In this document: one piece after another, positions 30,839-56,834 of the stretch
How the letters are laid out: every line of letters begins with the position of its first letter
Numbering within the stretch: position 1 is the stretch's first letter
Assembly (NCBI GenBank): GCA_000091205.1
Contig: AP006493.2
Length of the DNA stretch: 64,000 nt
Strand: one strand, 5' to 3'
DNA from: Cyanidioschyzon merolae
Lineage: Eukaryota
Position numbers and translations under genes: made by a program
The notes under the pieces: model-generated
Databases searched by the model: none
Seen by the model: the letters and a program-made list of their open reading frames with translations, nothing else
What the model was told of the DNA's origin: nothing

Positions 30839-33004
30839 ATGGAAGGCTACGTACCAGTCCCGATATCGAACAGCCGAGCAGGGCGTTGGACAGGAACCGG
30901 AAGCGACGGTACACGAGTTTTCACGCAAGCGCGCGACGTGTGTACTCGAGTTCCGGTGCTGGATACTCAGCTGTGCATGTCTCACGGAGCGCATCCTATA
31001 TCGAAGGCAAACGTAAGACTTGCCTTCCAGAAGCCCGGTGGTGTTCTGGGACAAGTCAATGTGAGCGTGTTTGCTCAAAACGGATGCGAGATAAAACCTG
31101 GGTGCGGCAACCGTGTTGCCGTCTCCAAATCTGAGGCACACGCTCTTGGAAGCGAGAGCTCGTGCTTCACACATGGGAGCCGGTGTCTATATCCGCACCC
31201 ACAACGCAAGTCGGCCCAAGAAAATGTGAACAGTGTCGACACTGATCGGGGTGATACTCGCATGATAGCCGTGGGTCCCCGTCGAACCAATGCCCGCAGG
31301 AGTGATAATCCAGAAAAACTTGAGGATTCATGTGAATCAGATAGTGTAATTACTGGCATCATTCTGCGAAGCCCGGATGAAGCCTATCAGGATCGTGGTG
31401 ATCATGCAGGGCTCGAGCACGCAGTAGCATCGCGGAACCAGCGGCGCAATAAGATCCCTCGTGTCGACCCTCGAGGGCTTGCTGCGTACGCAGACGAATT
31501 GCTCGCGGCGGCAGACATTGATATCATATCCCTCTCTGCAGAATTTGGCTCTGTCGACAGGAATAGCCGTAACCAGCGAACACGGATCTCGTTCCCCGGG
31601 TCATTGCGTGCCTACGTTCGAGGTCTGGAGCGGCAGTATCAGTTTGAGCAGTCGTCAGATGCACCTGAGTCTGTCGCTGAGGCAGAAAACAAAATGGTGA
31701 AGAGATCATCGCCTGCAGCGAAGGGCAAAAGCTCCTTGACACGCTCGGAGAAGCGTGCGGCGGCCGCTAAAACGAAAGGTCGGCAACCGAGGGCACGCAA
31801 GACGGAGCGCCTCACCGGCGCGCAAGTCCGAATGCGAGCGGGCCCCCGGATGAAGAATACTGTATCTACGGGTGACGCTTCCGTCGCTAGTGTTAATAGC
31901 AATAGTGGCACGGTGGACCCTTTTGATGGTATATTTTCCGGCCTTGACGATGAAGAACCTGATCTCGACGCGGATAGCGATAAGTTGCTAGATGCTCTGG
32001 TTGAGGAAGATGAATCTGCGGAAGCTGAGCCAAACACAGGTGAGCGGAAGGATGATACGATTCGTTCGTATCTGTATGAAATCGGGCGCTACCAACTTCT
32101 TCAACCTGGGGAGGAGGTCGAACTCTCCAGACAGGTTTGTGTCCTCATGGATTTGGAGCGATTTCAGAAGTCGTTTCGGGAGCAGCATGGCAAGTCACCG
32201 ACCGAGCTGGAGTGGGCTCGAGGATGCGGCTACGGCGAAGATGTCGAGGCGCTCCGCAAGCATATCCGAGATGGAAGAAGTGCGAAGGAAAGAATGGTAA
32301 CCGCCAATCTGCGGCTGGTGGTCTCCATCGCAAAACGCTATTCTAACCGTGGCGTAGCTCTGCAGGATCTGATCCAAGAGGGCTCCATTGGACTCATACG
32401 AGGAGTTGAAAAATTTGATGCTGGGCGAGGATTCCGGTTCTCCACGTACGCAACTTGGTGGATACGGCAATCCATTACACGAGCAATATCGGATTCCTCA
32501 CGTTCCATAAGACTGCCTGTTCACGTCCATGACACGATTTCCATGATTCGAAAGCACACCAAGGCCCTGCATACACAGCTGGGGCGTCCACCTCGCGAGG
32601 ACGAAATCTGCGAAAGTGTTGGAATAGATATTGCAAAGTATCGTTTAATCATGGAATGTTCTCAGAATATTGTGAGCCTCGAAACACCCATGCACGGTAC
32701 AGATGACATACACAACCTCGGCGAGTCCCTGATATCCCCAGAGGAGCGCTCTGAGGATACTGTCTCGCGAGATACCTTGCGGGATAGCATTGAAAAGGTG
32801 CTGCGGTGTCTGACTGCGCGTGAACGGGAGGTTATTCGCATGCGCTTCGGCCTAGCAGACGGCCGACCGCGAACTTTGGAGGAAGTGGGAGTCAAATTTA
32901 ATGTTACCAGAGAGCGCATTCGGCAGATCGAATCCAAGGCTCTGAAAAAGCTCCGAATTCCTGCAGAGAACAATTTCCTCGACGAGTATCTCACGGAGCT
33001 CTAG
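30839..33004 (+). CDS. Nuclear-encoded plastid RNA polymerase sigma factor (sigma-70/RpoD family) with a roughly 400-aa N-terminal extension.
   Basis: Region 2 reads ANLRLVVSIAKRYSNRGVALQDLIQEGSIGLIRGVEKFDAGRGFRFSTYATWWIRQSITRAI. Region 3 reads RLPVHVHDTISMI. Region 4 reads REREVIRMRFGLADGRPRTLEEVGVKFNVTRERIRQIESKALKKLR. A bacterial-type sigma in a eukaryotic nuclear context implies plastid targeting. The true start may lie at a downstream ATG. Confidence 0.8.
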   Translation: MEGYVPVPISNSRAGRWTGTGSDGTRVFTQARDVCTRVPVLDTQLCMSHGAHPISKANVRLAFQKPGGVLGQVNVSVFAQNGCEIKPGCGNRVAVSKSEAHALGSESSCFTHGSRCLYPHPQRKSAQENVNSVDTDRGDTRMIAVGPRRTNARRSDNPEKLEDSCESDSVITGIILRSPDEAYQDRGDHAGLEHAVASRNQRRNKIPRVDPRGLAAYADELLAAADIDIISLSAEFGSVDRNSRNQRTRISFPGSLRAYVRGLERQYQFEQSSDAPESVAEAENKMVKRSSPAAKGKSSLTRSEKRAAAAKTKGRQPRARKTERLTGAQVRMRAGPRMKNTVSTGDASVASVNSNSGTVDPFDGIFSGLDDEEPDLDADSDKLLDALVEEDESAEAEPNTGERKDDTIRSYLYEIGRYQLLQPGEEVELSRQVCVLMDLERFQKSFREQHGKSPTELEWARGCGYGEDVEALRKHIRDGRSAKERMVTANLRLVVSIAKRYSNRGVALQDLIQEGSIGLIRGVEKFDAGRGFRFSTYATWWIRQSITRAISDSSRSIRLPVHVHDTISMIRKHTKALHTQLGRPPREDEICESVGIDIAKYRLIMECSQNIVSLETPMHGTDDIHNLGESLISPEERSEDTVSRDTLRDSIEKVLRCLTAREREVIRMRFGLADGRPRTLEEVGVKFNVTRERIRQIESKALKKLRIPAENNFLDEYLTEL

Positions 33005-33634
33005 GGTAGCCAGTCACTGCACCAAACACTTTCGGAGAGATTTTATAAAACTGGTGATTTTACCGAGCTGTACTGAATGCGCACTGTCAGAGAAGCGAAA
33101 CGTTTGCTGTTCTTTGTGGGATAAACAAATACCTTCCCATAGACGCCTCCTAGTCTTTTTTGACCGGTCGCCTGCTACTAGTCTCAGTTTCGCCCTGTGC
33201 ATTTCGATCCTGAGAGGCTGCCCCTTAAAGTTTGCTCGTCTTCAGCACCGCAAATCTCCTGTTATTGATAGCAGCATGGGAGTCCCGGTTCACGAACTCC
33301 GCGTATGCAGCGCTGCTGGTGGACCTCACCAAAACAAGGATTCCTCGAACTCGCGCGTTCTGTGCCACTAAAGTCTCACCATCGCCCCGTTGGCAAACAT
33401 CACTTTCCTTCTGTCTACTTTCTTTTTCGTCTTCTTCTTGCTCACTTGCTCTTCATCGCTCGATGGTTTGCGAGAGGCAAATTTATTTCGTTTTTCCGAC
33501 AGAAGGCGACATCGGGGCTCCAGGATTTTCGACTCCCATGTTCATAACTTTCCCTTGGATTTCCTATTTCTTCAAATCACCACACCAGTTTATGCCCGCC
33601 AGGTGAGGACCTTCACAGAGCAAGAAGGACTTGT

Positions 33635-34575
33635 GAAAGAGATAATGTGCCCACTGGGACACCATGTGCTTAACGCTTCAGCGATTCGCCCGGTGGAACG
33701 ATCATTACATTTCAGGATACAAAACACTCTTTCGGTTAAGTTGAACCATGGAGCGTACGGAGTAATGAAAGGCGGCTCTACGGCGAGAGACCTGGCAAAG
33801 GCTCGAACGGAAGGGCAATTCTCAAATGCACGGTGTCCAATAGGAGGAGGTCTCCAGATTTCAGGGGAAAAGTCTTCAATGATCCGACGAAGTGGTCGAA
33901 GCTGCTGTTTGAGCCTTCTTTAGACGCCAGAACCGAGGCCACCAATAGTATCTACTGCAGCTAGAACATATGGTGATGTTCTCTTTCGCCTCGAGATCGA
34001 TTGTATATACAACGGGCTCCATGCTCCGCGAATACTCACACATGCTCCGATCGTTTCATTCGAATGACATCTCATCGACTGAAAGAATAAACCGACGTAC
34101 CTGTGCTTCATACGGCTAGTGGCGTTCCGGAAAAGCTATTGCTGCGATTTCGGTGGAGGATGGCCGTGCGTGATCTAGGGCGCTGTTTTTGCGACTACAT
34201 CGCAATGTCTGCAGGACCACGCGAGCTCCCCGCTCAGACACAGAGACGCTTGCGGTGGCTACTATTACGCCTTTTTTCTTCCCGTATGAGGGTCAACGGA
34301 TCGTATTCCATCATTGACTGGAAGCAGTCTTGGAGAATAACGGTTTTGTCGCGGAACGCATGTACTTGTTTCTTTCTTTCATTGTTCCTCAACGATCTGA
34401 GTACTGTTGTATGACTGAACTGAGGGGCGAACGCAGTCCTCCTTGCATTGTTAAGCAAAAAATATTCTCTACAAGCAATTTGTGTACAATCTATATGGTA
34501 CGCTGCGTAGAGATTTGCATGTCCTGCTCTACAGTGCGAAGAAGCATTCTATTTTACGCAGCGGGAGTAAAGCAA
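33635..34575. repeat. Copy 1 of a 941 bp perfect direct repeat. It is an internal segment of the TnpB/Fanzor-like element family.
   Basis: Identical over its whole length, as far as I can read, to 37415-38355 (offset 3780 bp). Divergence begins before 33635 and after 34575. A roughly 80%-identical inverted fragment of the same sequence lies at 54065-54185. Confidence 0.85.
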
Positions 34576-35370
34576 GACTTGGTTTCAATAGTATAATACA
34601 AGGCGTCGATTAACGCGGTTCCTGTTACAGCAGTAGGCCATCATAGCGGGTAGACGCCCAAATACGCCTAGATTTCGTCATGGGCTCCAATTCCCAGCAC
34701 TTGCCCGTTTGAAAAGCGACGCGATCATTGTATAACTCGGACGCTGACGACCGAATGAAACGATCTCGTTCGGAAAGCGGCCTGACACAGCATCCAAATA
34801 AGCTCATCTGCCGAATTTCACCAGCGCCATCTGATCCGGTCTGTTTACACTTGCGTATAGATGCCCGGTGCGGCCTGGCGCCGAACTTGACTGCGGCTCT
34901 TCGTCGAACTTGCGACTTCCAGCGGCAGAATTTGGATAGAAGCATCAATGCTATCGAGGTTCGTTTTTTCAGCGTATTAGGATCTGTTAATATACATGCA
35001 ATAATCAGCAATCTAAAAACTGTAGTGACCCCGTACGCGCAGCTTGGATTATGTTATTTCTCTCTCTTTCGATGACATGGATGAAAGGCGGCGAATGCAT
35101 GTCTCCATGTGCTTGTAATGTGAAACGGTTCATACCTGGATAACCGCCGGCATATGATCATGAAATTCTCAAGACTTTACGGCGCGTTGAAGTCAAATTC
35201 TCATGCCGGAAGTCTGTCGAATCGACGCCTTCTACAATTTAACCATTTATGAAGCAAGTACCCATCGTTAAATTCCGATTCGTGACCGGATTCCGCAATA
35301 TTCCATGGAAACCGATGGTCGCCGCAGATGAACTCGGAGAGGGAGCATGGTGGCCTTCCAGGACGCTCTA

Positions 35371-36774
35371 TCACTGACGGTCGAGGAGCCTCCGAACTTT
35401 CTGTATGCGTTGCTCCGCGTTCAGTCCGCTGCTACTTCGTTTTTCGATTGGAACGTGCACATCGGCGTCCACCATGTGAGTAAACATCAGTGGTGCCAAG
35501 CCCGCGCACGGCTCGTTTGCAGCTTCGGAGCCCTCATCCTTGCAAAATGGAGATCCGTGCGTGGTCCGACGCAACAGTGCTCCATTGAAGATAACTTTTG
35601 TAAGATCTGCATACCATTGGAGAAGAATTGGACGCAAAATGCCTACAACGGTTGAATTTCTTGAGCATTTTCCCCATGGAGAGTCTCTCTCTAAAGCGTA
35701 ACGCCATGGAGGTTCATTCTCTCCGTAATGAATATTCCAGAGCACCAGCGGGTGCTCTGGAGCTTGGACATACTGGGGTCGTGGATCTATTCTTGGTGAA
35801 CCGTCAAGCCCAAGAAGGCTGTCCACTAGAGAAATGTTCTCTGTGCCCCGACCGATTTCCAAGAGAAGAGCAATCATGAACCTAACTTGATGGTAAAGAA
35901 ATGCCTGGCCTTCGATGGTGAACTCTAAAATGCCACGAGGGAAAAGCGCGCGATAGAACTCATCTTTTGCGAGTTCGACTGTGCATTGCAGAATAACCCG
36001 TTCTGTGTTGCCTTTCGTTGTCTCCGCATCGAACTTGCAGAAATTGGCAAAATCATGTCTTCCGACCATCTTTTTGGCTGCAGCAACCATGCTACAGATG
36101 CCTTCATCGCTAAACACATTCGGCACGAAATATTTGTATGTTCGTGAATAGGCACTGAAACGAGCCGAGAAATCATCCGCCACGGGGGCCCAGGCGTACA
36201 CTCGCACTGATGCAGGCAACTCCCGATTCAGTAAATGTATATAGTCATAAAAGTTAGTCCCCGTGCCAGGTGGAGGGCACCTTACCAAAAGCGATACGAC
36301 TTGGCCAATTGCACTGACACCCTTATCGGTGCGCCCACCACGAGCGTACTGCCAACCTTTTACAGCCCAGGTCTCACCGAACTTCTCTCGGCTGAGAGGC
36401 CTGTTCGGGGACACCCCTGTGGCGCACGTGCCGTCACTGCCAACGAACCAGTGCAAATTGGGTACCAGATTTACCTTCTCTAGCGCATAAAATAGAGCAC
36501 TCTCTACAGATTTGAATGCGATTCCACTAAGCTTCCCCGCCGAAGACGTGCTGAAGTCAGCCGGCTGAGCAGCAAAACCAGAAGGAAACGACCAACCTTG
36601 GTATGCAAGCTTCAACGCTATTTTTCGAACGCCGTACTCTTTGAAGTTGATTTCGCGAGCAGAATTCTTATTACGGGAGCTGCTCCGCTTCAGTCCTAGC
36701 AGTTGCTCCAAACGTGCAGCGTAAGCCTCCAGTTCTGCTCGGCTTAGTTTCGAAAGGTTCTGTACAGCGCTCAT
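35371..36774 (-). CDS. PUS3: tRNA pseudouridine synthase, TruA family (Pus3/Deg1-like).
   Basis: N-terminal coiled-coil, then RKIALKLAYQGWSFPSGFAAQ. The catalytic Asp lies in YARGGRTDKGVSAIGQVVSL, followed by RVYAWAPV. ATG at 36774; 467-aa uninterrupted ORF. Confidence 0.75.
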   Translation of the reverse strand: MSAVQNLSKLSRAELEAYAARLEQLLGLKRSSSRNKNSAREINFKEYGVRKIALKLAYQGWSFPSGFAAQPADFSTSSAGKLSGIAFKSVESALFYALEKVNLVPNLHWFVGSDGTCATGVSPNRPLSREKFGETWAVKGWQYARGGRTDKGVSAIGQVVSLLVRCPPPGTGTNFYDYIHLLNRELPASVRVYAWAPVADDFSARFSAYSRTYKYFVPNVFSDEGICSMVAAAKKMVGRHDFANFCKFDAETTKGNTERVILQCTVELAKDEFYRALFPRGILEFTIEGQAFLYHQVRFMIALLLEIGRGTENISLVDSLLGLDGSPRIDPRPQYVQAPEHPLVLWNIHYGENEPPWRYALERDSPWGKCSRNSTVVGILRPILLQWYADLTKVIFNGALLRRTTHGSPFCKDEGSEAANEPCAGLAPLMFTHMVDADVHVPIEKRSSSGLNAEQRIQKVRRLLDRQ

Positions 36775-36849
36775 CTCGAAGAAGTATACTTGGCTTCAAG
36801 AAAAGAGGATCTTTTGCCGTGATGCCGAAAAATAAGTGTCCCGCAACTT

Positions 36850-38355
36850 CTATAACCAAGTTGTGGAACAAACTGGTCCAAACACGAAATGGTTTCCCTC
36901 CATCCAACGAAAATAAGAAAACAAAGTTGGCTCAGCGAATCGAAAGCCCCTTTCGCAAACACGGAGTAGATTTATATTCACGCGCAGACGCCTCGCAGCC
37001 TTTATCGACCAGCCACGTGCTGTCGGCCTCAGAGTCTCCTTCTGGACTTCCACCCGGAGAGGCTGCCCCATAAAGTTCGCTCGCGTCAGCGCAGCGGGTC
37101 TCGCCTTCTGCACCGCACATCTGCTGATATTGATGGCAGCATTAAAGTCTTGGTACGCGAACTCCATGCATTTATTACTTCTGGATGAACTCACCAATGC
37201 AAGCAGCTCTCGAACTAGTGCCCTCAGTGCCACTTGCTGCTGTGTCAGTTCTTCATGTTTTTCAATCGCGGATGCGCCCCGCTCGCTCTTCTCCACCTCG
37301 ACTATCTGCATTGTGCATCCCGGCACATCCCTAAGATGTTTTATTTTTGAACATGTACGCATTTCTTCTTGCCTTTAGATGACAACTTTCCCGGAGGCAG
37401 AAGAGCTCGTGGAAGAAAGAGATAATGTGCCCACTGGGACACCATGTGCTTAACGCTTCAGCGATTCGCCCGGTGGAACGATCATTACATTTCAGGATAC
37501 AAAACACTCTTTCGGTTAAGTTGAACCATGGAGCGTACGGAGTAATGAAAGGCGGCTCTACGGCGAGAGACCTGGCAAAGGCTCGAACGGAAGGGCAATT
37601 CTCAAATGCACGGTGTCCAATAGGAGGAGGTCTCCAGATTTCAGGGGAAAAGTCTTCAATGATCCGACGAAGTGGTCGAAGCTGCTGTTTGAGCCTTCTT
37701 TAGACGCCAGAACCGAGGCCACCAATAGTATCTACTGCAGCTAGAACATATGGTGATGTTCTCTTTCGCCTCGAGATCGATTGTATATACAACGGGCTCC
37801 ATGCTCCGCGAATACTCACACATGCTCCGATCGTTTCATTCGAATGACATCTCATCGACTGAAAGAATAAACCGACGTACCTGTGCTTCATACGGCTAGT
37901 GGCGTTCCGGAAAAGCTATTGCTGCGATTTCGGTGGAGGATGGCCGTGCGTGATCTAGGGCGCTGTTTTTGCGACTACATCGCAATGTCTGCAGGACCAC
38001 GCGAGCTCCCCGCTCAGACACAGAGACGCTTGCGGTGGCTACTATTACGCCTTTTTTCTTCCCGTATGAGGGTCAACGGATCGTATTCCATCATTGACTG
38101 GAAGCAGTCTTGGAGAATAACGGTTTTGTCGCGGAACGCATGTACTTGTTTCTTTCTTTCATTGTTCCTCAACGATCTGAGTACTGTTGTATGACTGAAC
38201 TGAGGGGCGAACGCAGTCCTCCTTGCATTGTTAAGCAAAAAATATTCTCTACAAGCAATTTGTGTACAATCTATATGGTACGCTGCGTAGAGATTTGCAT
38301 GTCCTGCTCTACAGTGCGAAGAAGCATTCTATTTTACGCAGCGGGAGTAAAGCAA
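36850..38355 (-). pseudogene. Partial TnpB/Fanzor-like element (copy delta). The C-terminal fragment, including the RuvC-III-like motif, is contiguous with direct-repeat copy 2. Reading is broken across frames.
   Basis: Minus-strand ORF 36850-37362 reads ...KIKHLRDVPGCTMQIVEVEKSERGASAIEKHEELTQQQ...NKCMEFAYQDFNAAINISRCAVQKARPAALTRANFMGQPLRVEV. It aligns with the copies at 42.6 kb, 54.5 kb and 57 kb. Homology to copy gamma continues upstream into 37415-37500 in another frame (ILKCNDRSTGRIAEAL versus IMKCNDRSIGRIARPF at 54400). Confidence 0.55.
37415..38355. repeat. Copy 2 of the 941 bp perfect direct repeat.
   Basis: See 33635-34575. The shared sequence begins gaaagagataatgtgcccactggg. Confidence 0.85.
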
Positions 38356-39093
38356 AATCGAGTTGAACGACTATCTGACGCCTACGCAAAGCGATTCCGC
38401 GTACCGTGTATCTGCAAAGTAGCACTTCTTAATGGTAGAGCCGCAATTGAGAACGTTCGGAGTGTTTTCCTGGTTCTGCTGGATGGATTTTTGGTAAACT
38501 ATATTTAATCTTCTAGTGGGAGGATGATTGCGCGGGCAAAACCATATTTTCCAGGATGAGTCGTACTGAAAGAAGCACAGTATTCACTATGCCGGGCGAG
38601 GTAGGTGCTAGTTTGGGTTTGACCTCACGCGATGCGCACAACGGCTGCGGAATACGCACAACTCGATACTGATCGTCGAGTCGGCAAGACTGCAACATGC
38701 TCATGGCTCAGGTCATCCGAAGAGAAACCTCACCATAAATACCGTGTTCATACTTCACATCGTACATAAGAAAAATTACTTTTCAGGCCCTCTACAATAA
38801 ATAAAATTGGATTCCACTTATCGCGTTTATTGAGAGATTTACCGGACGCTTCCGTCGCAAAAAAAAGAAGAGACATAAGAAACTTGACCCACTGTGTAGA
38901 AGGAGAGCAAACACCGCAAAGCCCTGCGAAAACCTCATGCGGTGATGTCGCGCCCTGCTGCGATCGTAACGAAGGCCATTCGTCGCCACGCGCAACGCAG
39001 GGCAAGAGACGGCTTGCGTACGGTGCAGAACACCGAACTGGCTGTGAAGAGGATCTCTTCTTTGTCAGTACTAAAAGGCGTCGCTTTCTGGGA

Positions 39094-40485
39094 ATGGAGC
39101 AGCTTGCCAAGGATCTTTTTGAGATAGGTGCGGTCAAGTTTGGCACGTTCAAACTCAAGTCTGGGATAGCGTCTCCATTCTATGTCGATCTGCGCGTTGC
39201 TGTCTCGTATCCTCGAGTTCTGAGAAGCATTGCGGCTCTGTACCTAGAGTGCTTGCAGGACTTTTCTGGCGCTTTCGACGTTATTTGCGGGGTTCCATAC
39301 ACTGCGCTCCCTTTTGCGACAGCAATGGCTGTGCAGGGAGACTTACCTATGGTTATGTGTCGAAAGGAGGTCAAAGACCATGGAACACGGCGAGTTGTTG
39401 AAGGTGCTTTCACACAAGGCTCTCGTTGCTTAATAATCGAGGACGTTGTTACAAGTGGTTCAAGTATTCTGGAAGTTGTGGGCGCATTGCGCGCAGAGGG
39501 TCTCAAAGTGGATCACGCGATCGTCTTGCTTGATAGGGAGCAAGGCGGGTGTGAGGCGCTTCTCGGCCAGGGAATAGGGCTCCGATCTGTTTTCCGCATC
39601 AGCGACCTCGTTGGGACGCTGCGGAATTTGAACTTGCTTGAGCCGGGGAAGGTGGATATGATTCTAGATTTTATTCGCACGGCCCGCGCAGCATCAGATG
39701 TTAAGCGCCCCGAAACAAACGTTCCATCCGCATTGCCAGTCGCCGCATCAAGTTCTTCCCCGGTGCGAGATCAACTTTACTCAATCGCAGAAAAAAAGAG
39801 AAGCATATTATGCGTTGCGGCAGACGTACAATCGACTAAGGAGCTTCTTGGAATTGCAGATGCAGTAGGCCCCCACATCTGTGTTCTGAAGTTGCACGCC
39901 GATATTATCCAGGACTGGACGACGGACACATCAAGACGCCTTCGAGAGCTCGCGGACAAACACAGTTTCATGCTTTTTGAGGATCGAAAATTCGCTGACA
40001 TAGGAAACACGGTTGTTGCACAGTTCAGCGCAGGCGTACATCGGATCTCTTCCTGGGCGGACATTGTCAATGCACACGCCATCCCGGGCCCTGGACTGAT
40101 TGAGGGCCTGCGCCACGCTTGCGCAATTTCCGGCAGAATGATTGGCCTCCTGTTAGTCGCACAAATGTCCAGCAAAGGGAACTTGATTGACGAGAGATAC
40201 ACTGCTACATGCCTGCGGATGGCCCGCGAAGCGTTTCCGTTCTGTATCGGCTTCATTGCCCAGGAGCGTCTGGACCCGACAGGGAAGCTCTTTGTGATGG
40301 CGCCTGGTGTGCAACTGGATTCAAAGGGCGATCAATTAGGCCAACAGTACAATTCACCACAGTATCTGCTGAAGCGCAAGGGTGTCGACTTCCTTATCGT
40401 TGGCCGCGGTATCTACGGGAGTGAAGAGCCAGCAAAGGCGGCCCAGATGTACAAAGAGTTGTCGTGGAGCGTCCTTCACGGCTAA
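39094..40485 (+). CDS. UMPS: Bifunctional uridine 5'-monophosphate synthase (orotate phosphoribosyltransferase + orotidine-5'-phosphate decarboxylase).
   Basis: The OPRTase N-terminus MEQLAKDLFEIGAVKFGTFKLKSGIASPFYVDLR begins at the ATG at 39094; the track start at 38830 is a TTG. The PRPP motif is CLIIEDVVTSGSS. The ODCase half reads ILCVAADV...CVLKLHADI...FMLFEDRKFADIGNTV...LLLVAQMSSKGNL and ends in a C-terminal barrel. Confidence 0.8.
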   Translation: MEQLAKDLFEIGAVKFGTFKLKSGIASPFYVDLRVAVSYPRVLRSIAALYLECLQDFSGAFDVICGVPYTALPFATAMAVQGDLPMVMCRKEVKDHGTRRVVEGAFTQGSRCLIIEDVVTSGSSILEVVGALRAEGLKVDHAIVLLDREQGGCEALLGQGIGLRSVFRISDLVGTLRNLNLLEPGKVDMILDFIRTARAASDVKRPETNVPSALPVAASSSSPVRDQLYSIAEKKRSILCVAADVQSTKELLGIADAVGPHICVLKLHADIIQDWTTDTSRRLRELADKHSFMLFEDRKFADIGNTVVAQFSAGVHRISSWADIVNAHAIPGPGLIEGLRHACAISGRMIGLLLVAQMSSKGNLIDERYTATCLRMAREAFPFCIGFIAQERLDPTGKLFVMAPGVQLDSKGDQLGQQYNSPQYLLKRKGVDFLIVGRGIYGSEEPAKAAQMYKELSWSVLHG

Positions 40486-40940: not shown

Positions 40941-42443
40941 TCAGCTGCTAGGGATTGTGGCGCGACTTTCGCTGACGCGCACTCGTATGATCGAATCGGG
41001 GTACAGCCTTATTGTGTCCCCAGTGTGTAGCGCAGAATTCGGACCGGTCTTTGTGGCCTTCCCCTGCAGTTCTTCCATTACTAAATCCTTGCCATGCCAT
41101 GATTCCACCGTCCCAAACGCTGTCGGATCCGCAGCATACACGTCCACAGGCGTTCGTTGGTAATTTCTGTACACAATCGAGGAGTTCCATATTTCCGCCG
41201 ACCAGCCTCGAACTCGAATCTGGTGCAATTCCGATTCTGTAACGATCGCAAGTCCCGGAAGCATAGCGCGGACTTTTCCGATAAGACGCTCAAAGCACGA
41301 CAGATGTTTTTCGTATTCCTCCAGAGAATACGTAGATCTCATCGCGTTCTGCGCATGCCACATAATGTTGGCAAACTTTGTCGAATTCAGAGTCTTGATA
41401 ATTTCGTTCACAGACTTTTCGCAGTCAAACCCTGGGTAAAATGCATCAAACCGAGGCCGATTCGTGATTACAAGGCCACCATCCATGCGATATACCTTCT
41501 GAACATCTCCGAGGCTGGTGCCGATGAAACCTGCGTACCGCGCGGCATCGGCCAGCCACGGTGTCCACGTATTGTGTGGTGACGAAAGCACCCGAGGCCG
41601 ATACCCCCAAAATGCCCGAAACGAATGCAAACCGCCCTGAATCCACTCGAGAAGATGCTGATGCTCATCGAACCAATCAAATTCAGACCGAAGAGCTATC
41701 TCACTAGAACCGCATACAAGAGAGTGGTTGAAACAAGCCTCCGCTTTGGATCCTGCAATATTTAACTCTCTTAGCCAACGGGACACAGAAAAGTGCGAAC
41801 GACCGTGGTACTCAGGATGCCACAATTCGTTCATATATAGCTTCCTGTAGAGGTCCCGTAGATCGCCTCTGCTGTATGGCGGCCTCGACAGGCCGCCCGC
41901 TGAATCATGCAGCAGGAGCTCGATGTAGCCGCAACGGTCCTGGCGTCCGCTATCCCTGCCGTGGCACGCTACCGCCAGCGGCCGCGAAAGCTTCCTCATC
42001 GCCTCAAAGTCGGGCCCGCCAACGATCCAGTGAGGCGTCAGCACGACTCTCTTTTCGTATGTAACGTCGGCATTTAACCGTTCAAGCAGACTCCCTAGAT
42101 TCTCGAGATCTTCACGGGTCTCGGAAGTCGCCAGTCGGTACCAAAAACCAGCGGGCGCAGTTTGAAGCTCCTCGTGACTAGAAGCGAACGCAATGTCCGG
42201 AAAGATTGGCACAGCGTCCGCCCAGCGTCCCCAGTCATCAGAGGATATTGACAGAAAACAACGCTCTGGCTTGTTCAGAAGCGGCGCTCGCCCGGGACGT
42301 GGCAGATCGAGGGGGTATGGAGGCTTCCCCCGGAAGCGCCAATCCACTCCAAACCGAAAAACTACTTTCAGCAGAGCAAAGACGGCGAGAGCAGCAACAA
42401 GGCGCAGAAAATAAAGATGCACCACCCTGGTGAAAGCAGACAT
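40941..42443 (-). CDS. Type II membrane (signal-anchor) protein with a probable polysaccharide deacetylase (CE4/NodB-like) fold.
   Basis: The N-terminal hydrophobic anchor is LYFLRLVAALAVFALLKVVF. CE4-like motif analogues are SISSDDWG (TFDDG-like), LSRPPY (RxPY-like) and EFDWFDEH (DxxDW-like). ATG at 42443. This is recognition by motif only. Confidence 0.4.
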   Translation of the reverse strand: MSAFTRVVHLYFLRLVAALAVFALLKVVFRFGVDWRFRGKPPYPLDLPRPGRAPLLNKPERCFLSISSDDWGRWADAVPIFPDIAFASSHEELQTAPAGFWYRLATSETREDLENLGSLLERLNADVTYEKRVVLTPHWIVGGPDFEAMRKLSRPLAVACHGRDSGRQDRCGYIELLLHDSAGGLSRPPYSRGDLRDLYRKLYMNELWHPEYHGRSHFSVSRWLRELNIAGSKAEACFNHSLVCGSSEIALRSEFDWFDEHQHLLEWIQGGLHSFRAFWGYRPRVLSSPHNTWTPWLADAARYAGFIGTSLGDVQKVYRMDGGLVITNRPRFDAFYPGFDCEKSVNEIIKTLNSTKFANIMWHAQNAMRSTYSLEEYEKHLSCFERLIGKVRAMLPGLAIVTESELHQIRVRGWSAEIWNSSIVYRNYQRTPVDVYAADPTAFGTVESWHGKDLVMEELQGKATKTGPNSALHTGDTIRLYPDSIIRVRVSESRATIPSS

Positions 42444-42610
42444 AGGTGCCCAACTCTAGAGAGCGTGCTCTCACCCAGGATTCGGGGTTCCAAATGTTTT
42501 CGATTAAAGAACTGAGCGCGTATACGACTGAAATTTAAGAACCGGCCACTCCTGGAAACAAACGCCTTTCGAAAGTCGAACGACGCCAACCGTGTTCAGT
42601 TGTGGCGATC

Positions 42611-44960
42611 TACCTGCCCCAGACAAGATGTTTCCAATTGACGTGCAGACGCCTCCCCGTCTTTTTGGATCGGCCACGCACTACTACTTCCAACTGTTTC
42701 TCATATAGTTCCACTTTGACAGGTTGTCCCATAAAATTCTCTCTTGTCGACTCTGGAGGCCTTCTTTCCATCACCGCACATTTCCTTATATTGATAGCGG
42801 CGTTAAAGTCTCGTTCACAAACTAAATACGTTTCTTGCCATCATTGGCTGTACTTACTAGTGCAAGTGGCCCACGAACTTTCTCCATCCTTTCCATTTGC
42901 TCTTCCGTCAGTGCACCGTTCTTTGCTATTTCCTCAGGGCTCCGCTGACACTTTCCCATCTCAACCCTCTGAAGTGTACAACCCAGCTCGTGGCGTATAT
43001 ACGTTGTTTGAAATTCATCTACAGGTACTGTAACAAAACGCCGTGCACGCTCCTTGTTCACTCTCGTCTTTGGAGCTGGAGTAGTCCCTTTATGGGTCTT
43101 CCAGCGCCCTGCTCCGTATGCTAATACGAGCCTCTGACTTTCATCCTCTTTGAGAGCACTCAACTCATCGAAAAAATTCGCGAACGCCCGCTGCTTCCCA
43201 TTGTATAGATTCATTCGCAAACGAGCCCACCGGCGCTCGGTATACTCCTCCCACAGCGCATCCCAATGCGCAATGCGAACTTCCATGAATTTCCGAAAAG
43301 CGTCAAAGTCCGCTCCTCGGCTCGTCACCTCGCTCAAAGCTTCTAGGTGATCCTTCATTCCTGAATTCCAGCTCTCGATTTTCTTCCTCGCATTCATTAT
43401 ACCCGATTCTCGATAGTATCTCGCTATCGAGAACCTCAGTAGACGCATGTCTTCCCGACGTAAACTACCGTCAGTACCATCTTCCGCACACTTCGGTGCT
43501 GCGATGGTGATGATATTTGTGTTCCCAGCGTCCGCGCCAACGACAAAGTAGTTATGCTGCACTTTCTGTGTCGCTGGATCCGCCTCCTTCTTTTCTTCAT
43601 CCTTCACCGCGTCAAAGACAAGGTCGTTATCCTGCACCTTTTGCATCGCAGGATCCGCTTTTTTTTTTTCTTTTCTTCATGTTTCTTCACGGGCGCAGCC
43701 GAGGGCGGAACTGGACGATCTTTCTTCAACCGCTGATAGTGTACATTCAAGGCTACTCCATCGGTTTCGATCAACCCAGTGAATACCTTTTGTTTGCTGA
43801 CTTTGAGACGTTTGAAAGCGAAGATATTCTTCCAGTACGTCTCACGGGCTTCACCGGAGAACTCCTCCCTGCTAACATTGAACTCTGGACTGATCTCCCT
43901 AATGATGCCATGAAGGATTCTGGAGTCGATACTCACGAAATGTGACTTGAGGTTGCACAACAGAACGCCATTGAAGCGCTACCCCATTAGGACAGCCTCC
44001 CGTCTCTCCCACTCTTCATTTGTCTCTACACTCAGCTTCATTTCCGCCTTGCGTTCGAGCTCTCGGTCCAGAAACACGACATAGCGCAGAATGAGGCGAT
44101 AGTATCTTTCCTTATCTTTTTTCAACTCTGATATCTTTTCTGTTGGATTCGCCAGCCCCAAGACTGTACGGTGCTCTTGTCTAGCCGCACGGATTATAGA
44201 AGCTTCATTCGTGCTCCTGTGTCACTTTTTCTTGTCGACAAATTCGATCTCATCTTCATACTTTCGATCGTTCTTGATGCCACTGATAATCGCCCATTTT
44301 CCTTTGCGAGAGATGCCCGAGTAGAGTGCTAGCACGGCGTGTATCATGAAAAGTTCGAGGTTCACGATCGGTTGGTTCTTCAGATTCGTGAGGTACTTAA
44401 TCGCCCCATAGTCGTAAACATCCGAGTCACCCCTGTATCGGGTACCCTCGAAGCTATAAAAGGCATGTTTTCGTGCAGGGCGTGCACCAGCTCATTTTCC
44501 CTTCGCGCTTCCTCTGTGCCAAGCATCAGGTGACGAATAAAGGTCTTATCGAAAAACTCGTCCGGAATCTCGACCGTTTCCATGTGCGTCACTTCGCGAT
44601 ACACCTCACTCGCCAAATGCATCAGTCCTGACGACGCCTTGACAATACTCTTGGAGTATGACGCAACACGTCTTTCGATAGCGTCTCGCAACTTGTCCCT
44701 GTAGGGATCCTTGATATGTCCAAGAAGAAAGGTTTTCACCACCATCTCGTCGCACAGTTGTCATTCTTGCCGCTTACGACGTAGGGCCTCTCCATTTCGG
44801 TTCTACTTCTCTTCCTTTTCTTCTGGACCTGGTACTGTTTTTTGTTTTCTTCTGGCAGCCAGCGACACTGAGCCTCTAGGATCGTGGACTTGCTCTTCCA
44901 TAACTTTTCTTTTTTTAATTTTTTGAAAAAGAACGCTCTTTTACAGCTTGCGTCACACAC
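42611..44960 (-). mobile_element. Most complete copy (alpha) of a eukaryotic TnpB-like (Fanzor-like, IS200/IS605 OrfB-superfamily) RNA-guided-nuclease element, about 2.3 kb. It is a pseudogene with one in-frame stop and at least two frameshifts.
   Basis: Minus-strand pieces: 44736-44960, 44380-44745, 43979-44161 (ends at an in-frame TAG at 43979-43981), 43604-43960 and 42822-43646. A RuvC-I-like motif reads [15 protein letters not shown], with an earlier echo [14 protein letters not shown] Fanzor-like block reads LVLAYGAGRWKTHKGTTPAPKTRVN...FVTVPVDEFQTTYIRHELGC. After a further frameshift, the RuvC-III motif ERDFNAAINIRKC lies at 42788-42814. The tail ends at the stop at about 42611. Confidence 0.55.
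43556..43692. repeat. Roughly 65-75 bp in-gene tandem duplication inside element copy alpha. It contains an 11-nt T homopolymer (43659-43669) that causes a 1-nt frameshift.
   Basis: Unit A reads ctgcactttctgtgtcgctggatccgcctccttcttttcttcatccttcac. Unit B reads ctgcaccttttgcatcgcaggatccgcttttttttttt cttttcttcatgtttcttcac. Adding one A to the minus-strand A11 run joins ORF 43604-43960 to ORF 42822-43646 in frame. Confidence 0.7.
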
Positions 44961-45618
44961 CGCGAAAATTCACTTGAATGAACTTGCTTGAGGGCTGAAA
45001 CACAATTGAAATGAAAAAGTATTCTTTGCTACAACTTCAATGCAAATGCAACTTGTGTGTTGGAACAACAAGAAAAAGACTGGTTAGGATCGAGTTTCCC
45101 TTCAACGACACCGTGCATGTCGCGTCTCGTGACTGCCTTCTCCCCCAGATGCGCGTATCGAGCGCACCGTATAGGAAGAAAGGCAGAGACTCACGGTTCA
45201 CTATCAACGTTGTAACAGTATCTTCCTCCTCTATGATAAACGTTAAAAGGAGGGCAAATGTTTCCTTATTTTGGAAAGTTTACCATATAGGCGAAAGTTC
45301 CCGCGAGCTGTACGAGTCTGCTGGTGAATGCGGTGTGCGCCGCGCAGTGTACAAAATTCCATGCGCTTCCATGCGCTCAGCTGTGCTAGTAAGTAGAAAA
45401 GTCGTCAGTTACAGAGCACGTGTGTATGCCACTTGCAGATCCTGAAAAGGACAACTTCTTCACATTTTACGTGGGAGATGCAGGTTTAGATCTACTCCAA
45501 GTTATAGATTCTTCAAACCACAGGGTGACGCACCCATTCAATCACAGTCGTGGCTGCGAAAATGCAGCTTAATTGGATGCGATTTCATTGTTGTTCTAGA
45601 GGACTGTAGGCGCGGTGC

Positions 45619-51540: not shown

Positions 51541-52680
51541 TACTTTCCAAATTCGAATATCCAGCTCATTGTCAATGTTGGATCGCGTCAATCAACGGCG
51601 GTCAAAGTGTACGCAGCTGAGAATGGAGTTCTGCTGTTACTTGTGCCAGCATGTGCTCCCCCGCTCGATGCAGTTGAAGGCATCTTCTCTGTTGCCGAAC
51701 GCAGATTTGCGCTCACAGTTAAGCAGAGGAGTCGTTCGCGTCTGCGACAACTTTTGTCGACAAATCACTCTCTACATTTAGCCGCCTTGAACTGCTGTAC
51801 TAGTTGTCTACTCAAGGGAGACAGGTACCGGAAAGCGTGTCCGTCCATAGATACTTTGCGACGGAGATTGCGACGGATATGTGCTTGAGGAAGTTCAAAT
51901 ATATACCTTGAAAAAAGAGGAGGGTTTCAATCGAAATTTGCACACAAAGCATCTTAATCCCAAGTACGGATATGGAGACGGAATACATTGCCCAAATCCA
52001 GGCTATGCCGCCAACAAGAAGAGAAGCCGATGAAGGAAACGTTCTTATTGCGCGAATATGAAGCACGCAAGCGACTTCGTGAAGAGCATATGCCGAGCGC
52101 GTTCATGAATTCTCTTTTACTAGGAGCAAATTGAGAAAAGTTCACAGGCACCATCCCTCCGATGAAAAACAAATCTGCATATATTCTGTGGGAACCAGGT
52201 ATGAGTCGCGAAACGATACACATTAGCATGCATTCAAATTATATGAACAGAGAGATTCTATGGTGCACGTGATTCTAGAGTTGAACCCCGCCATGCCCCT
52301 TGCAATACCCAGGAAATCAAGATGACAGGCTCAAAGACCGTACAGGAACGCAGATGAAGCTGATCAACTTTGCTGGACTCGGTATTATCGTGAATTGAGC
52401 ACTGCGAAGACCAAGAGACCTACCAGCAATAAAAATGACGGCTTCAGGATCCATTTCGACGATCTGAGCAACTCATGGAGGAGAGCGGATTGCCTCGACC
52501 GTTTCATTCAGAAAGTTAGTGAGCGAGCAAATGGCTTCTGCGGACGATCTTGCACAGGCGTTTGAAACACCGCGCTATCTTCGCCCGCGGTGTCAGCATT
52601 ACGAAGGCCAGAAGCGCGCTTACGCCAACTTCTTCGATATTTTGAAAGTAAATGATCACGATGTCGCTTGGTATCATGTT

Positions 52681-53174: not shown

Positions 53175-53999
53175 CCAATATTCTTCGTTGCGCTGATCAG
53201 ATTAGCAAGGCCGGAGCAATGTGTACGTATATCAGGAAAGATTTTGCGAGGCGATTGTTGAACGATAACTGCGTTCAATTATTCGACATTACTGAGTGTA
53301 GGGCTAACCCACCGAGCATTTTTCTTTCCATGCGCTACTCTGGTTACTGAACCCTGTCCTTTGCTGCTCAAGCAAAGCTCTTTGCTCTATGGTGTAGCAG
53401 ATAACTTCCGAGTACGCTCCTCCAATCTCTAAATTTTCGGGTAACGATCCTACCGTCTTGAGCTTTTTGTTCACTTAGCGCCAAATTCTTTGAAAAAACG
53501 ACTCTATCCGCGGATTCTTCAAGGTTTCTCTTTAATGTGGCCAATAGAGTTTTCCAACTCAAGTTTGTTTCACTCTCGCTGCAGTGGATGCCAGGAGATG
53601 CAACTCTCTATGCAGCGCAACGTATAGATTGTAGACGAATTGCTTCTAGGGTACATTTTTTACTGAACGGCGGAAGGAAGACAGCGTACATCCATCAGTT
53701 CAGTCACACCGCAGTACTCAGATTACAGATGATTAATGAAAGAAGGAAAAATACAGGTATATGCCATCCGCACCAAAAACCGATATTCTCACAGATTGCT
53801 TGTGGCCAACGGTAGGAAACGACCCGTTGATCACCTTAATGAGAGCAAAAGCGACACCAGAAGCCGCGACACCCGTCTCTGTTTCTGAACAGCTTGTTTA
53901 CGTGGTCCTGAAAGCACTGGGATACAGCCGCACAAGAATGTTCAGTTTCACGCATTTTCATCTCCCACCGAAATCGCAATGACAGCGTTCCTAGAACGT

Positions 54000-54914
54000 C
54001 GTGATCGGTATGAAGCACAGGGAGGTCGGTTGCTTTTTTCGATAGATGAGAATTCCATCGGACGAACCGGTCGGAGCGAACATGCGTATTAACAGAGCAT
54101 GGAGCCCGTTGTATATACAATCGATCTCAAAGAGAACGACGATATAATTTGTTCTAGGCGCAGTGGATACATTTGGTGGCTCTAGTTTTAACTCCCCGAG
54201 AAGGCGCATAAAATCCCTCCCACTTTTTTAAATTATTGAAGACTTTTCCTCGACGCTAGGCGACGTCCTTCTGTTGGCCAACGTAGCGTTTCACCGGTTT
54301 CCTTGTGTTCGAGTTTTGCTGATTCTGTCGGGGTAGAGATGCTTCTAATTCCTCCCTACTCTCAGTAGCAGAACCTCATTGAAGAAATGTTTTTTATCAT
54401 GAAATGTAATGATCGCTCCATTGGACGAATCGCTAGACCATTCAGCACCGTAGCGCCGGGGCATACTTCGTCCTTGTTCCGCAAGTGATTCTCGCTCCAG
54501 GAAGAGATTTAGCTGAGGTCATGAACAAGTGCGTTCATTTTCAAGAAATTGCACCTAAGGAATGAGCTGCGGAGCTCATTTCAAAAGGTCGAGAGGGGGA
54601 GAAGCCAGCAGGGCGCTTCGGAGATAGGAAAGCACAGGGAGCTGACAGGGCAGCAAATGGCAATGAGGGCAAGGGATATAGGAATATTTGCATTGTCGCG
54701 TTCCAGCAACGGCACTGCAAGCATTGAGTTCGTGAACTTAGGCTCCAAAGCCGCCATCAATATCAGACAGTGTGAGGTATTGAAAACGAGACCCGCGGAG
54801 CTGAGGCGAACTTACTTTGTGGGGCGGCCTCTCAGAGAAGAAGTGTACAAGTTGAAGCTCCAGCCGATAGCATTCGGCCGGGCAAAACACTGGAACGCGT
54901 CCGTGCGTGGGTAA
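54000..54914 (+). pseudogene. Partial TnpB/Fanzor-like element copy gamma (C-terminal half, frameshifted).
   Basis: ORF 54549-54914 reads ...GASEIGKHRELTGQQMAMRAR...GSKAAINIRQCEVLKTRPAELRRTYFVGRPLREEV. The upstream 54390-54480 region is homologous to the reverse complement of direct-repeat copy 2, and 54065-54185 is about 80% identical to the reverse complement of 33930-34040. Confidence 0.55.
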
Positions 54915-56834
54915 TATTGAACCCCTACGGGTTGTGGCGCATTACTCATTTAACCTACAGCAAACTGAGCCCGTGGATAGACGTTTACTCACGGCCCGTT
55001 TGGGGTTTCAACAGCCGCAACTGGCTACGTCTCTGGTTTGTAGATGTTCATCGTCGCGATTCCTCAAAGGGGACGTTTGTTCGGGAAGCGTTTTAATCCT
55101 GCGTACGCGATTGGCTCTAGCAAACTGCACAAATCACAAGGAGCAGGCTGCTGCGTAGCGGCTCGCAAAATGCTTGGAGTGACCAACCGCACGCCGCTGC
55201 TGGCGCTGGAAACGAGCGAGGACACCCTCCCGGGGAAAGCCTTCCAAGCACCGGAAAGAGAGGCTCATGAACCTGTAAATTCGAACGCTGTGGCAGACGA
55301 AGTTCCCATAACTAGCTCTGAGCTCGAGCTACCAGCAGATTCGGACGCTTTAGAAGAGAAGCAGCTACTTCTTCTGCTCAAGAAACAGCTCGGGGCAGAT
55401 TTCGAACGAATTTTTGACTCAAAAAATCCATTCATAGGGGAGGTTTTCTGAGCGAGCCTGCTCAACCTGTCAGGACGGGATTTATGTCAACAATTGCATC
55501 CCAGCGGTGCTCGAGTACGTTCAAAGCCAGGTAATCCGTGCACGTTGTGGAGCTGGTGCGCATTTTTTGGGTATCATGTTGGTCTTTCTACCCAGGGAGA
55601 CAGCATTAATCTACCAATCAACAAATTCTTACTAGCACATGGATCCAATGCGTGTGACTCGTGATTCAGCACTGACCGAGGCGTTTCAAACGGATCGACA
55701 TGCTCAAAACCGGCGCGAAGAATCGTGAGAGCTTCTATTTGGACCGTCGACCGTAGCTGAAGAGTATGCGTGGAGTCAAGCTTCTGCTGAGGCTACATAT
55801 CCCTGCGGCGCGTTAGGCCGTCGGGTAGAAGTACTCTACGAGCTAATTGCCTCGTGGAGTACGCGTTTCGCACGCGTCCCTAGCGCACAGTCTTGCCTTC
55901 AGACACGAGTGTCGGGACGGAGTCGGGCTGTACACTGGAAACCTGATGACGTTCACAGCACGCCCACGCGTTGTTGCAGCCTCGGCAACGTGCCCCGATA
56001 CCGGCTATTGTCGCTAATTTCGAATCCGAGCACTTGGGCACGTCGGACACCAGGGATCCGGTTCAAATTGGCGGCTACATTTTTACCAGCGAGCTTTTTT
56101 GGGTATTTCCAATATGTCCAGCAATTCTGATTACATGGCATTCACCATCTGTGTCTAGGCATCGAAGTGGTACTGCATATATATGTCCTTCGAAAATGCG
56201 CATCTCTGTAAACTCTAGCGTTAAGCAGTTCAATGTTTTGTGGTGGGTACATGCTTATTGCCATTCCAGTGCCCACGACTGCTTTTGATCGCATGTTTCA
56301 CGCATGTATGAGTACTAAAAGCGAACTCATTGGGTTCGCGTCTGTCTGGATGCCCGACGAAAAAGCCTGGCTCTTAAGGCGAGTACTGTGAAAAGGAGGG
56401 GATAGAATGGCTCATATTTCCTGAGCTGCTCACCATGTCTAAAACGATCCTATAGACTGCATCCTCAGGTCTATGCATGAGCGTTGATGATCTGAATTCT
56501 TTCGGCATCTGTTCGAAATGGGCATCGCACTGAATATATCCGCAGGGGAACAATCTGAAATAATTCGCGATCTCGTTGGCAACGGTCCACGATCTAGAAG
56601 ATATCCCTCTCGCGCGCTTCCCCAAATGACGCTTCCAGACGGCGCAAGTTCCTGGAGGCGACAGACAAACGCATCATCACCAGGAGACAGGTAACGAAAC
56701 CCCTCTTGATATGCATAGAAATTGCGAAAACTTTAACGCCATTACCGTTCATCAGCTGCAAATGAAAATCGTTCCCTGTGTCTATCTAGGGCGCTCTAAT
56801 ATTTCTGGATGAGTAATCCGTACCGCACCAGTGC

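Follow-up and report, generated by a model that had tools for sequence, protein, structure and literature searches.

A 941-bp perfect direct repeat around the Cyanidioschyzon merolae Pus3 gene as a probable gene-conversion tract between two transposon relics

The window, i.e., the whole 64-kb stretch of DNA that was analysed, is nuclear DNA of Cyanidioschyzon merolae 10D, in which the genes for a sigma factor, Pus3 and URA5.3 follow one another in that order. Self-comparison showed that positions 33635-34575 and 37415-38355 are exactly 941 bp long, 100% identical and in direct orientation with a period of 3780 bp, precisely as an earlier note on this DNA had described them; this identity cannot be attributed to chance. 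It stops sharply, with ungapped identity at the random level of ~25% beyond both ends. Each copy of the repeat lies in an element (A and B, respectively), and a third member of the same family (C) lies elsewhere in the window. The features to which we refer are as follows:

30839..33004, plus strand: plastid RNA polymerase sigma factor (exact match to BAM80440.1; Pfam Sigma70 regions 1.2-4), the left neighbour of element A
33140..33634, minus strand: rest of element A, a decayed C-terminal tail of a Fanzor1 protein (CMe-1) plus spacer, in register with the tail of element B and ~65% identical to it, with indels
33635..34575, minus strand: repeat copy 1, the identity tract in element A, a predicted frameshifted IS630/Tc1-mariner-like transposase pseudogene
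35371..36774, minus strand: Pus3 tRNA pseudouridine(38/39) synthase (Pfam PF01416, PseudoU_synth_1, E=2e-24), the host gene between the repeat copies
36850..37414, minus strand: rest of element B, a Fanzor1 C-terminal tail matching CMe-1 aa 602-729
37415..38355, minus strand: repeat copy 2, the identity tract in element B, a predicted transposase pseudogene identical to that of copy 1
39094..40485, plus strand: URA5.3 (UMP synthase, CMK046C; exact match to BAM80442.1; Pfam OMPdecase and Pribosyltran)
42563-45346: a near-full copy of the Fanzor1 family CMe-1A
53574..54933, plus strand: element C, the third family copy, with a predicted transposase relic (53574-54485, four frameshifts) and a Fanzor tail (54540-54908)

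The gene between the two copies is 62% identical to the PUS3 of Cyanidiococcus and 37% identical to animal PUS3, and it shares a cluster with BAM80441.1 ('pseudouridine synthase 3'), which together with the Pfam match confirms its earlier identification as Pus3. The orthologous Pus3-sigma spacer of Cyanidiococcus is 930 bp long and free of any such element. On the other side of Pus3, copy 2 occupies positions -1679 to -739 relative to the ATG of URA5.3, the standard marker for selection and locus for targeting. Neither Rfam nor tRNA scans, run on 32.5-39.5 kb and on the window, gave a match, and no further self-similarity was found within 30-42 kb; across the 64 kb, the sole other long near-identical repeat is an inverted pair of 497 bp. 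The 941-bp repeat has no evident function.

The repeat had been taken to consist of internal segments of a Fanzor-like element, an assignment that our searches contradict: the best match of the 941 bp was at E=13 (tblastn) with CMe-1, the published Fanzor1 protein of C. merolae, and at E=1.0 (blastn) with the CMe-1A consensus DNA, which amounts to no similarity. Next to the repeat, matches to either are limited to the tails, at 36980-37328 and 33141-33367. Of the TnpB-type motif D..[TS][TS]xx-C4 zinc finger..RD (PMC3627910), the final part alone, ..(R/Q)DxNAAINI.., appears in the translations, and it lies in the Fanzor tails outside the repeat, where tblastn coverage is confined to aa 602-729 of CMe-1. 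Judged from its sequence, the repeat is instead probably a frameshifted IS630/Tc1-mariner-like transposase pseudogene, which corrects the Fanzor annotation. The joined reading frame of copy 2 runs from 38321 to 37400 across three frameshifts; this conceptual protein from element B matches the Pfam DDE_3 profile at E=0.039-0.089 and the NCBIfam IS630 profile at E=0.023, below the curated cut-offs. The frameshift-joined relic of element C reaches E=3.8e-8 with the IS630 profile (33 bits against a curated cut-off of 100; model positions 90-273 of 299) and E=1.2e-3 with DDE_3 (19 bits against 28.6), so that B and C agree on both the transposase family and the region of the model, with every score under the curated cut-offs. 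A hybrid of the B and C transposases scored 44 bits, a value biased by the hand-picking of its residues. The conceptual transposase found no homologue among 5.8 billion proteins, in a search limited by its word pre-filter and by the pseudogene state of the query, and nothing significant among the PDB sequences; a tblastn comparison with the mariner transposase of Pythium PUl-1 was likewise not significant (E=0.9). No convincing terminal inverted repeats are shared between the ends of the copies, and there are no TA target-site duplications.

In A, B and C alike, the predicted transposase pseudogene is joined to the final ~130 codons of the known Fanzor1 family CMe-1A. The tail of element A matches CMe-1 aa 621-726 over 33140-33407 (tblastn E=1.3e-13), that of element B matches aa 602-729 at 51% identity (E=1.6e-28), and that of element C matches the same CMe-1 tail at E=9.7e-22. 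In element B the tail retains an open reading frame of 170 aa (36850-37362) covering the last RuvC motif region only (..QDFNAAINI..), and at the nucleotide level 36980-37328 is 71% identical (blastn) to positions 2737-3088 of the CMe-1A consensus. The view that only copy 2 is contiguous with a C-terminal Fanzor fragment thus does not hold, as copy 1 too is followed by an in-register, more decayed Fanzor tail. Compared with CMe-1A as described (Bao & Jurka, 2013; PMC3627910), the 3′ ~350 bp of A, B and C correspond to consensus positions 2737-3088 and to protein residues ~602-729; unlike it, they lack the N-terminal ~600 codons of Fanzor and the CMe-1A 5′ region and carry the IS630-like transposase relic instead. 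Their order on one strand, DDE transposase and then Fanzor1, is that of the Pythium transposons PUl-1 and PUl-2, which are of mariner/Tc1 type with Fanzor1 downstream of the transposase (PMC3627910), whereas A, B and C have lost most of Fanzor, with neither gene still functional. A 34-nt block that is conserved between B and C supplied an 18-mer for a metagenome scan for further copies, which recovered only locus C and three matches dissimilar to the window.

With element C, ~68-70% identical to A and B throughout, as the outgroup, the relationship between A and B could be followed along their length. Beyond the limits of the tract, A and B are ~65% identical, as distant from each other as each is from C: in 100-column windows A-B identity is 0.44-0.78, similar to A-C and B-C, and the tails (33141-33369 and 36986-37234) align by blastn at 67% identity (E=1.8e-30) with a 65-bp offset arising from indels. 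The 120 nt adjoining the tract are colinear between A and B up to its boundary (score 16, against 9.1±1.6 for shuffled sequences, of which 3 in 1000 reached it). Inside the tract, A-B identity is 1.00, and A and B are each 0.64-0.78 identical to C. Homology beyond the tract is seen on the left, tail side only; on the right, beyond 34575 and 38355, there is no significant homology among A, B and C, a shared motif of ~14 nt in the MAFFT alignment being all that is found, and the right end of the tract seems to lie at or near the end of the element. The divergence of A, B and C fits the age of the CMe-1A family as given by its published ~80% identity to consensus (PMC3627910).

Ten independent metagenome contigs from at least eight samples contain the two copies with all four junctions, in unchanged order, and four further contigs end 141, 123, 109 and 30 nt into the repeat. 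Such breaks are the behaviour of graph assemblers at a true repeat; together with the four junctions they exclude a mis-join, and the repeat is therefore neither that nor private to 10D. The comparison of strains that had been proposed for copy 1 thus found it in 10 of the 10 spanning contigs. The sampled strains are 0.1-0.5% diverged from the window and all have the tract, which must accordingly predate their divergence or have been kept homogeneous since; the earlier description of the event as 'very recent' needs qualifying, the tract being common to every strain sampled. In one sampled sequence (L005) six differences from 10D recur in both copies, and at five of them the base is that of paralogue C, although a short-read assembler could have collapsed the two copies into one path. 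No unconverted allele was found in a divergent strain, the nearest Pus3 relative outside the species being the 62% identical, element-free Cyanidiococcus.

We consider the shared tract of A and B to be, with a probability of roughly 0.78, the product of non-allelic gene conversion between two old, dead relics that flank Pus3. A perfect tract within old, diverged paralogues is a signature of gene conversion rather than of tandem duplication or fragment insertion, and the 100% identical stretch is here embedded in colinear sequence that is ~65% identical in the adjoining 100 columns and in the tails; the flanks of A, B and C are about equidistant, and in the tract A equals B while both are ~70% identical to C. 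On this account, A and B would be two old dead copies of one chimeric transposon family, probably independent insertions, that flank Pus3 in a shared orientation. One or more conversion events would have copied 941 bp from either of them into the homologous position of the other, most likely when a break in one was repaired with the neighbour 3.78 kb away as template, erasing ~35% divergence across nearly the whole transposase relic and leaving the Fanzor tails diverged. Alternatively, a very young copy elsewhere in the genome may have been the source. Recombination between sequences that are only ~65% identical is usually inefficient, which counts against conversion.

The closest competitor, which we regard as unlikely, is that an old local duplication produced A and B and that continuous concerted evolution kept the core identical as the edges escaped and diverged, which would make the tract a long-maintained island and not the trace of a single recent event. 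The presence of the tract in all sampled strains, the six parallel changes in L005, and the proximity and common orientation of A and B would suit it; yet identity shows no gradient, dropping within a few bases from 100% to ~65%, neither Pus3 nor the rest of the intervening sequence is duplicated, and a simple insertion of A is compatible with the spacer seen in Cyanidiococcus. Moreover, outside the tract A and B differ from each other as much as from C, which fits independent insertions of an old family. Somewhat less probable still is the recent insertion of a 941-bp sub-fragment, by transposition or as a templated insertion, beside an unrelated old Fanzor tail. Perfect identity, sharp ends and a right end devoid of detectable flanking homology are what such an event would leave, but the fragment would have had to land in just the orientation and register in which copy C places this module beside its Fanzor tail. 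It also lacks terminal inverted repeats and target-site duplications, its transposase frame is broken, and its left end is internal to the family since homology with C crosses it.

Tandem duplication, with 1.25 copies of a 3.78-kb unit, would account for the direct orientation and the constant 3780-bp period and is nonetheless very improbable: it predicts that the copies have only junction-free unit sequence in common, whereas nothing beyond the transposon relic is duplicated, the sequences to the right of the two copies are unrelated, and the model leaves the diverged Fanzor tail on the left of copy 1 unexplained. The inverted 497-bp tract, furthermore, has the same pattern, and tandem duplication cannot produce a tract in that orientation. 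An artefact of the reference assembly, be it a mis-join or a falsely expanded repeat, has a negligible probability in our estimate; short-read assemblies are unable to count traversals of a loop, and beyond this we found no support for it, whereas the distinct junctions in independent contigs contradict it, as do the contigs that break inside the repeat. The three routes of the earlier note (tandem duplication, mobilisation of a sub-fragment and mis-join) therefore do not fit the evidence. We likewise give almost no credence to the idea that the copies are the LTRs of a retroelement enclosing Pus3: they are direct repeats of LTR-like size set 2.8 kb apart, but the interior is a conserved host gene syntenic with the sigma factor in Cyanidiococcus, the repeat encodes a DDE_3/IS630-like relic, and the copies have unrelated flanks and no TG..CA terminus.

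Ectopic gene conversion, which we favour, is known among human LTRs (PMC4921805) and in the concerted evolution of duplicated genes (PMC3924837), and laboratory work has reported gene conversion at URA5.3 itself (PMC3764038). The Pus3 locus resembles such cases in having a near-perfect, sharp-ended tract within diverged colinear paralogues, partners a few kb apart, and conflicting relationships between tract and flanks; it is unlike them in that its partners are unusually diverged (~65% identical) and that the tract covers nearly the whole module. The second tract, at 52.7/57 kb (497 bp, 99.6% identical), has a like anatomy, as it sits in a pair of 1.25 kb with flanks of ~45-65% identity. The 941-bp tract abuts a Fanzor tail and the 497-bp tract covers a Fanzor-derived 3′ (C-terminal) end. 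It is conceivable, if quite improbable, that a still-active genomic Fanzor1 nuclease, guided by RNAs derived from such element ends, cuts the relics and that repair from paralogues homogenises them; if true, Fanzor activity would drive the homogenisation of its own relics, as a eukaryotic counterpart of TnpB-promoted transposon retention. From the structure of A, B and C, the so-far unclassified CMe-1A Fanzor1 family may descend from an IS630/mariner-type carrier.

With 941 bp of perfect direct identity around 2.8 kb of unique DNA, the pair resembles the substrates of non-allelic homologous recombination (NAHR) and single-strand annealing, and homologous recombination is efficient in C. merolae (PMC3764038); it would thus be a substrate for deletion of Pus3 by direct-repeat recombination. 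The risk of NAHR predicted for Pus3 is a reasonable expectation on general grounds, yet no sign of it was seen: in contrast to those substrates, the locus shows no deletion or amplification allele among the sampled contigs, none of which is devoid of Pus3. As the genome is haploid and Pus3 is a conserved enzyme of tRNA modification, deletions may be selected against. The left arm of the standard 'neutral' integration construct is the URA5.3 upstream region from -2300 to -898 (PMC4549557), equivalent to 36794-38196 of the window. Copy 1, lying another 3.78 kb upstream, is a perfect match to 782 bp of this 1.4-kb arm (37415-38196); the construct inserts within copy 2, and the final 159 bp of the repeat are also present in the URA5.3 marker cassette (-897 onwards; PMC3764038). 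A transgene crossover at copy 1 rather than copy 2 would be expected to delete Pus3. For genome biology, the repeat would be a clean if ordinary case of transposon relics undergoing ectopic gene conversion in an algal genome that is very compact, and its main practical relevance would lie in its position inside a homology arm routinely used to place transgenes beside URA5.3.

The two copies of the 941-bp repeat, 33635-34575 (copy 1) and 37415-38355 (copy 2), are where the earlier note had placed them, direct and 100% identical over exactly 941 bp with a period of 3780 bp, and beyond both tract ends ungapped identity drops at once to ~25%. Besides this pair, a self-BLAST of the window recovered a 497-bp inverted pair (52681-53177 / 56832-57328, 99.6%) and, on the opposite strand, a third, ~70%-identical copy (element C) of the elements that hold copy 1 (element A) and copy 2 (element B); C matches B via 53592-54833 and A via 53592-54434. 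The host genes around the repeat are:

30839-33004, plus strand: plastid sigma factor, ORF identical to BAM80440.1 (C. merolae 10D, 852,849-bp chromosome record)
35371-36774, minus strand: Pus3 gene (Pfam PF01416, E=2e-24), clustering with BAM80441.1
39094-40482, plus strand: URA5.3/CMK046C, UMP synthase, identical to BAM80442.1, with its ATG at 39094

As these three accessions are consecutive, both repeat-bearing spacers are free of annotated features. Identity of the Pus3 protein is 62% to its Cyanidiococcus counterpart, against 37% to animal PUS3.

A single Fanzor1 family, CMe-1A, has been described from C. merolae, with a consensus of 3169 bp, ~150 copies at ~80% identity to that consensus, and neither TIRs nor TSDs (Bao and Jurka, 2013; PMC3627910). 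Comparison of the window with this consensus and the 734-aa CMe-1 protein, both from the supplementary files of that study, yielded the following relics:

13129-13632, plus strand: diverged relic of a Fanzor-like C-terminus, with 30% identity to CMe-1 aa 525-694 (E=1.3e-17)
14027-14279 and 23169-23446: CMe-1A/TE-N2_CMe 5'-end-like fragments (consensus ~4-269)
33141-33367: Fanzor tail of A, more decayed (CMe-1 aa 621-726, E=1.3e-13)
36980-37328: Fanzor tail of B (consensus 2737-3088, 71%; CMe-1 aa 602-729, E=1.6e-28)
42563-45346, minus strand: near-full CMe-1A Fanzor1 copy, 82% to consensus positions 468-3169
54562-54908: Fanzor tail of C, the same CMe-1A end part as beside copy 2

The near-full copy has its Fanzor frame split in four and sits between a 500-aa ORF (40941-42443) and a radical-SAM gene.

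Beside the 941-bp repeat, CMe-1A is thus represented by its last part only. The repeat had been taken for an internal segment of a Fanzor element, with copy 2 alone adjoining a C-terminal fragment; it is without similarity to CMe-1 (best E=13) or CMe-1A (best E=1.0), and a decayed Fanzor tail also lies beside copy 1. Read on the minus strand, the repeat is a broken gene. Joining B over three frameshifts (38321-37400) and C over four (53574-54485) gave conceptual proteins whose segments are collinear and abutting. That of C matched the NCBIfam IS630 transposase (E=3.8e-8, model 90-273 of 299) and Pfam DDE_3 (E=1.2e-3), and that of B matched both weakly (IS630, E=0.023; DDE_3, E=0.039-0.089); with all these scores below the curated cut-offs, we rate an IS630/Tc1-mariner-like transposase pseudogene as likely rather than proven. 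A search for terminal inverted repeats at the element found none. Judged from the sequences, one chimeric dead element is present in three copies, A (~33140-34575), B (~36850-38355) and C (~53574-54933), each a fusion of a putative transposase relic with the final ~130 codons of Fanzor1. The 34-nt block GAGCATGGAGCCCGTTGTATATACAATCGATCTC (element orientation; 37773-37806, 33993-34026 and 54095-54128) is perfect between B/A and C, the rest being ~70% identical.

With the three elements aligned in element orientation and identity scored per 100-column window, A versus B gave 1.00 inside the tract and 0.44-0.78 outside it, and A versus C and B versus C gave 0.64-0.78 inside and 0.41-0.70 outside. 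Within the tract A and B are the same sequence; past it, neither resembles the other more than it resembles C. Their tails are homologous (33141-33369 versus 36986-37234, 67%, E=1.8e-30), with indels shifting them by 65 bp, and in the 120 nt next to the tract they are colinear to its boundary (score 16 versus 9.1±1.6 for shuffles, reached by 3/1000). To the right of the tract, a search for homology found nothing significant and only a common motif of ~14 nt, and there the tract seems, from the sequence, to reach the end of the element.

Non-allelic gene conversion or templated break repair classically leaves such a mark, a perfect, sharp-ended tract lying in register within two old paralogues, and either process acting between relics A and B would have left the identical 941 bp. 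The identity is best read as one more case of this known process, with conversion between the old relics A and B as its probable source. This reading has two weak points: partners of only ~65% identity should seldom recombine, and to the right of the tract the homology does not reach significance. The earlier note had instead proposed a tandem duplication of a 3.78-kb unit, a mobilised sub-fragment or an assembly mis-join. Duplication is contradicted by the sequence past both copies, which is unrelated, nothing beyond the element being duplicated; a mobilised fragment fits no better, as it would need to have landed in register within a homologous relic. Conversion is corroborated by the inverted pair, a second conversion-like tract that is built alike. 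It lies within 52050-53293 and 57961-56717, a homologous, colinear 1.25-kb pair of diverged Fanzor-like relics with flanks at ~45-65%, whose central 497 bp are 99.6% identical (only 2 mismatches) and end abruptly on both sides. Tandem duplication cannot explain this pair because it is inverted. Between its two members lie element C and about 3.6 kb.

The mis-join is excluded by independent assemblies. Using the encoded neighbour proteins (sigma, URA5.3), we found ten independent metagenome contigs covering the locus (L001-L009, L011), which are 99.7-99.9% identical to the window and mutually different. All ten carry both copies and the four junctions (left flank/copy 1, copy 1/Pus3 side, Fanzor tail/copy 2, copy 2/URA5.3 side) in the same order and spacing, and a single-copy locus could not yield four distinct junctions. 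Four further contigs end within copy 1 (L010 after 141 nt, L012 after 123 nt) or in copy 2, short of its right end (L019 by 109 nt, L020 by 30 nt), as graph assemblers do inside true repeats. The repeat is neither an artefact nor private to the reference 10D. Contrary to the earlier reading, it is not Fanzor sequence, and conversion is its probable origin. As short-read assemblies are unable to count extra loop traversals, some strains may hold more than two copies.

The supposition that the event was very recent calls for a qualification: the tract is common to every sampled strain, with identical copies in each, and hence either predates their common ancestor or has been maintained. As the surrounding sequence itself varies little among sampled contigs (2.2-2.5 variable sites per kb), the lack of differences between the two copies of one genome is not in itself evidence for ongoing homogenisation. 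Relative to 10D, the metagenome contig L005 has six changed sites in the repeat, the same six in both copies (34129, 34138, 34146, 34256, 34311, 34394, and each +3780); five of the six carry the base of paralogue C and are thus ancestral-like. If real, these changes spread between the copies after strain divergence, though a short-read assembler may have merged the copies. Elsewhere, 38751-39270, covering the promoter and the start (~60 codons) of URA5.3, is hypervariable among the metagenome strains (27 variable sites/520 bp; 52 per kb against 2-9 in the surroundings), with clustered multi-base differences common to L005 and another contig, L006. In 20839-43004, about two dozen sites set the window apart from every aligned metagenome contig (among them 21785, 22011, 31715, 33407, 36553, 39004), reflecting either alleles private to 10D or errors in the reference.

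The Myb-sigma-Pus3 order is kept between 26977-48576 and a Cyanidiococcus yangmingshanensis contig (VWRR01000010.1), whose Pus3-sigma spacer measures 930 bp versus 2366 bp here; related sequence was looked for in that spacer and is absent, which fits element A being a lineage-specific insertion. Past Pus3 the neighbours differ (URA5.3 and the 500-aa ORF in C. merolae, Coq4 in C. yangmingshanensis), and radical-SAM and lycopene-cyclase genes lie nearby in both. The breaks in gene order coincide with relics of transposons, namely B and the CMe-1A copy.

Perfect direct identity of 941 bp around 2.8 kb makes the repeat a candidate substrate for pop-out deletion of Pus3, which is plausible given the efficient homologous recombination in C. 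merolae; none of the sampled contigs shows such a deletion. Conversion of the chromosomal URA5.3 allele by introduced DNA is on record for C. merolae (PMC3764038), which also speaks for the conversion reading of the repeat. A widely used integration construct upstream of URA5.3 has a left arm of -2300 to -898 (PMC4549557), the URA5.3 marker running from -897 onwards (PMC3764038). This arm corresponds to 36794-38196 (ATG at 39094); 782 bp of it match copy 1 without a difference, and the point of insertion falls within copy 2. While the general interest of the repeat is low, it has practical value for C. merolae engineering, as the URA5.3 arm contains duplicated sequence.
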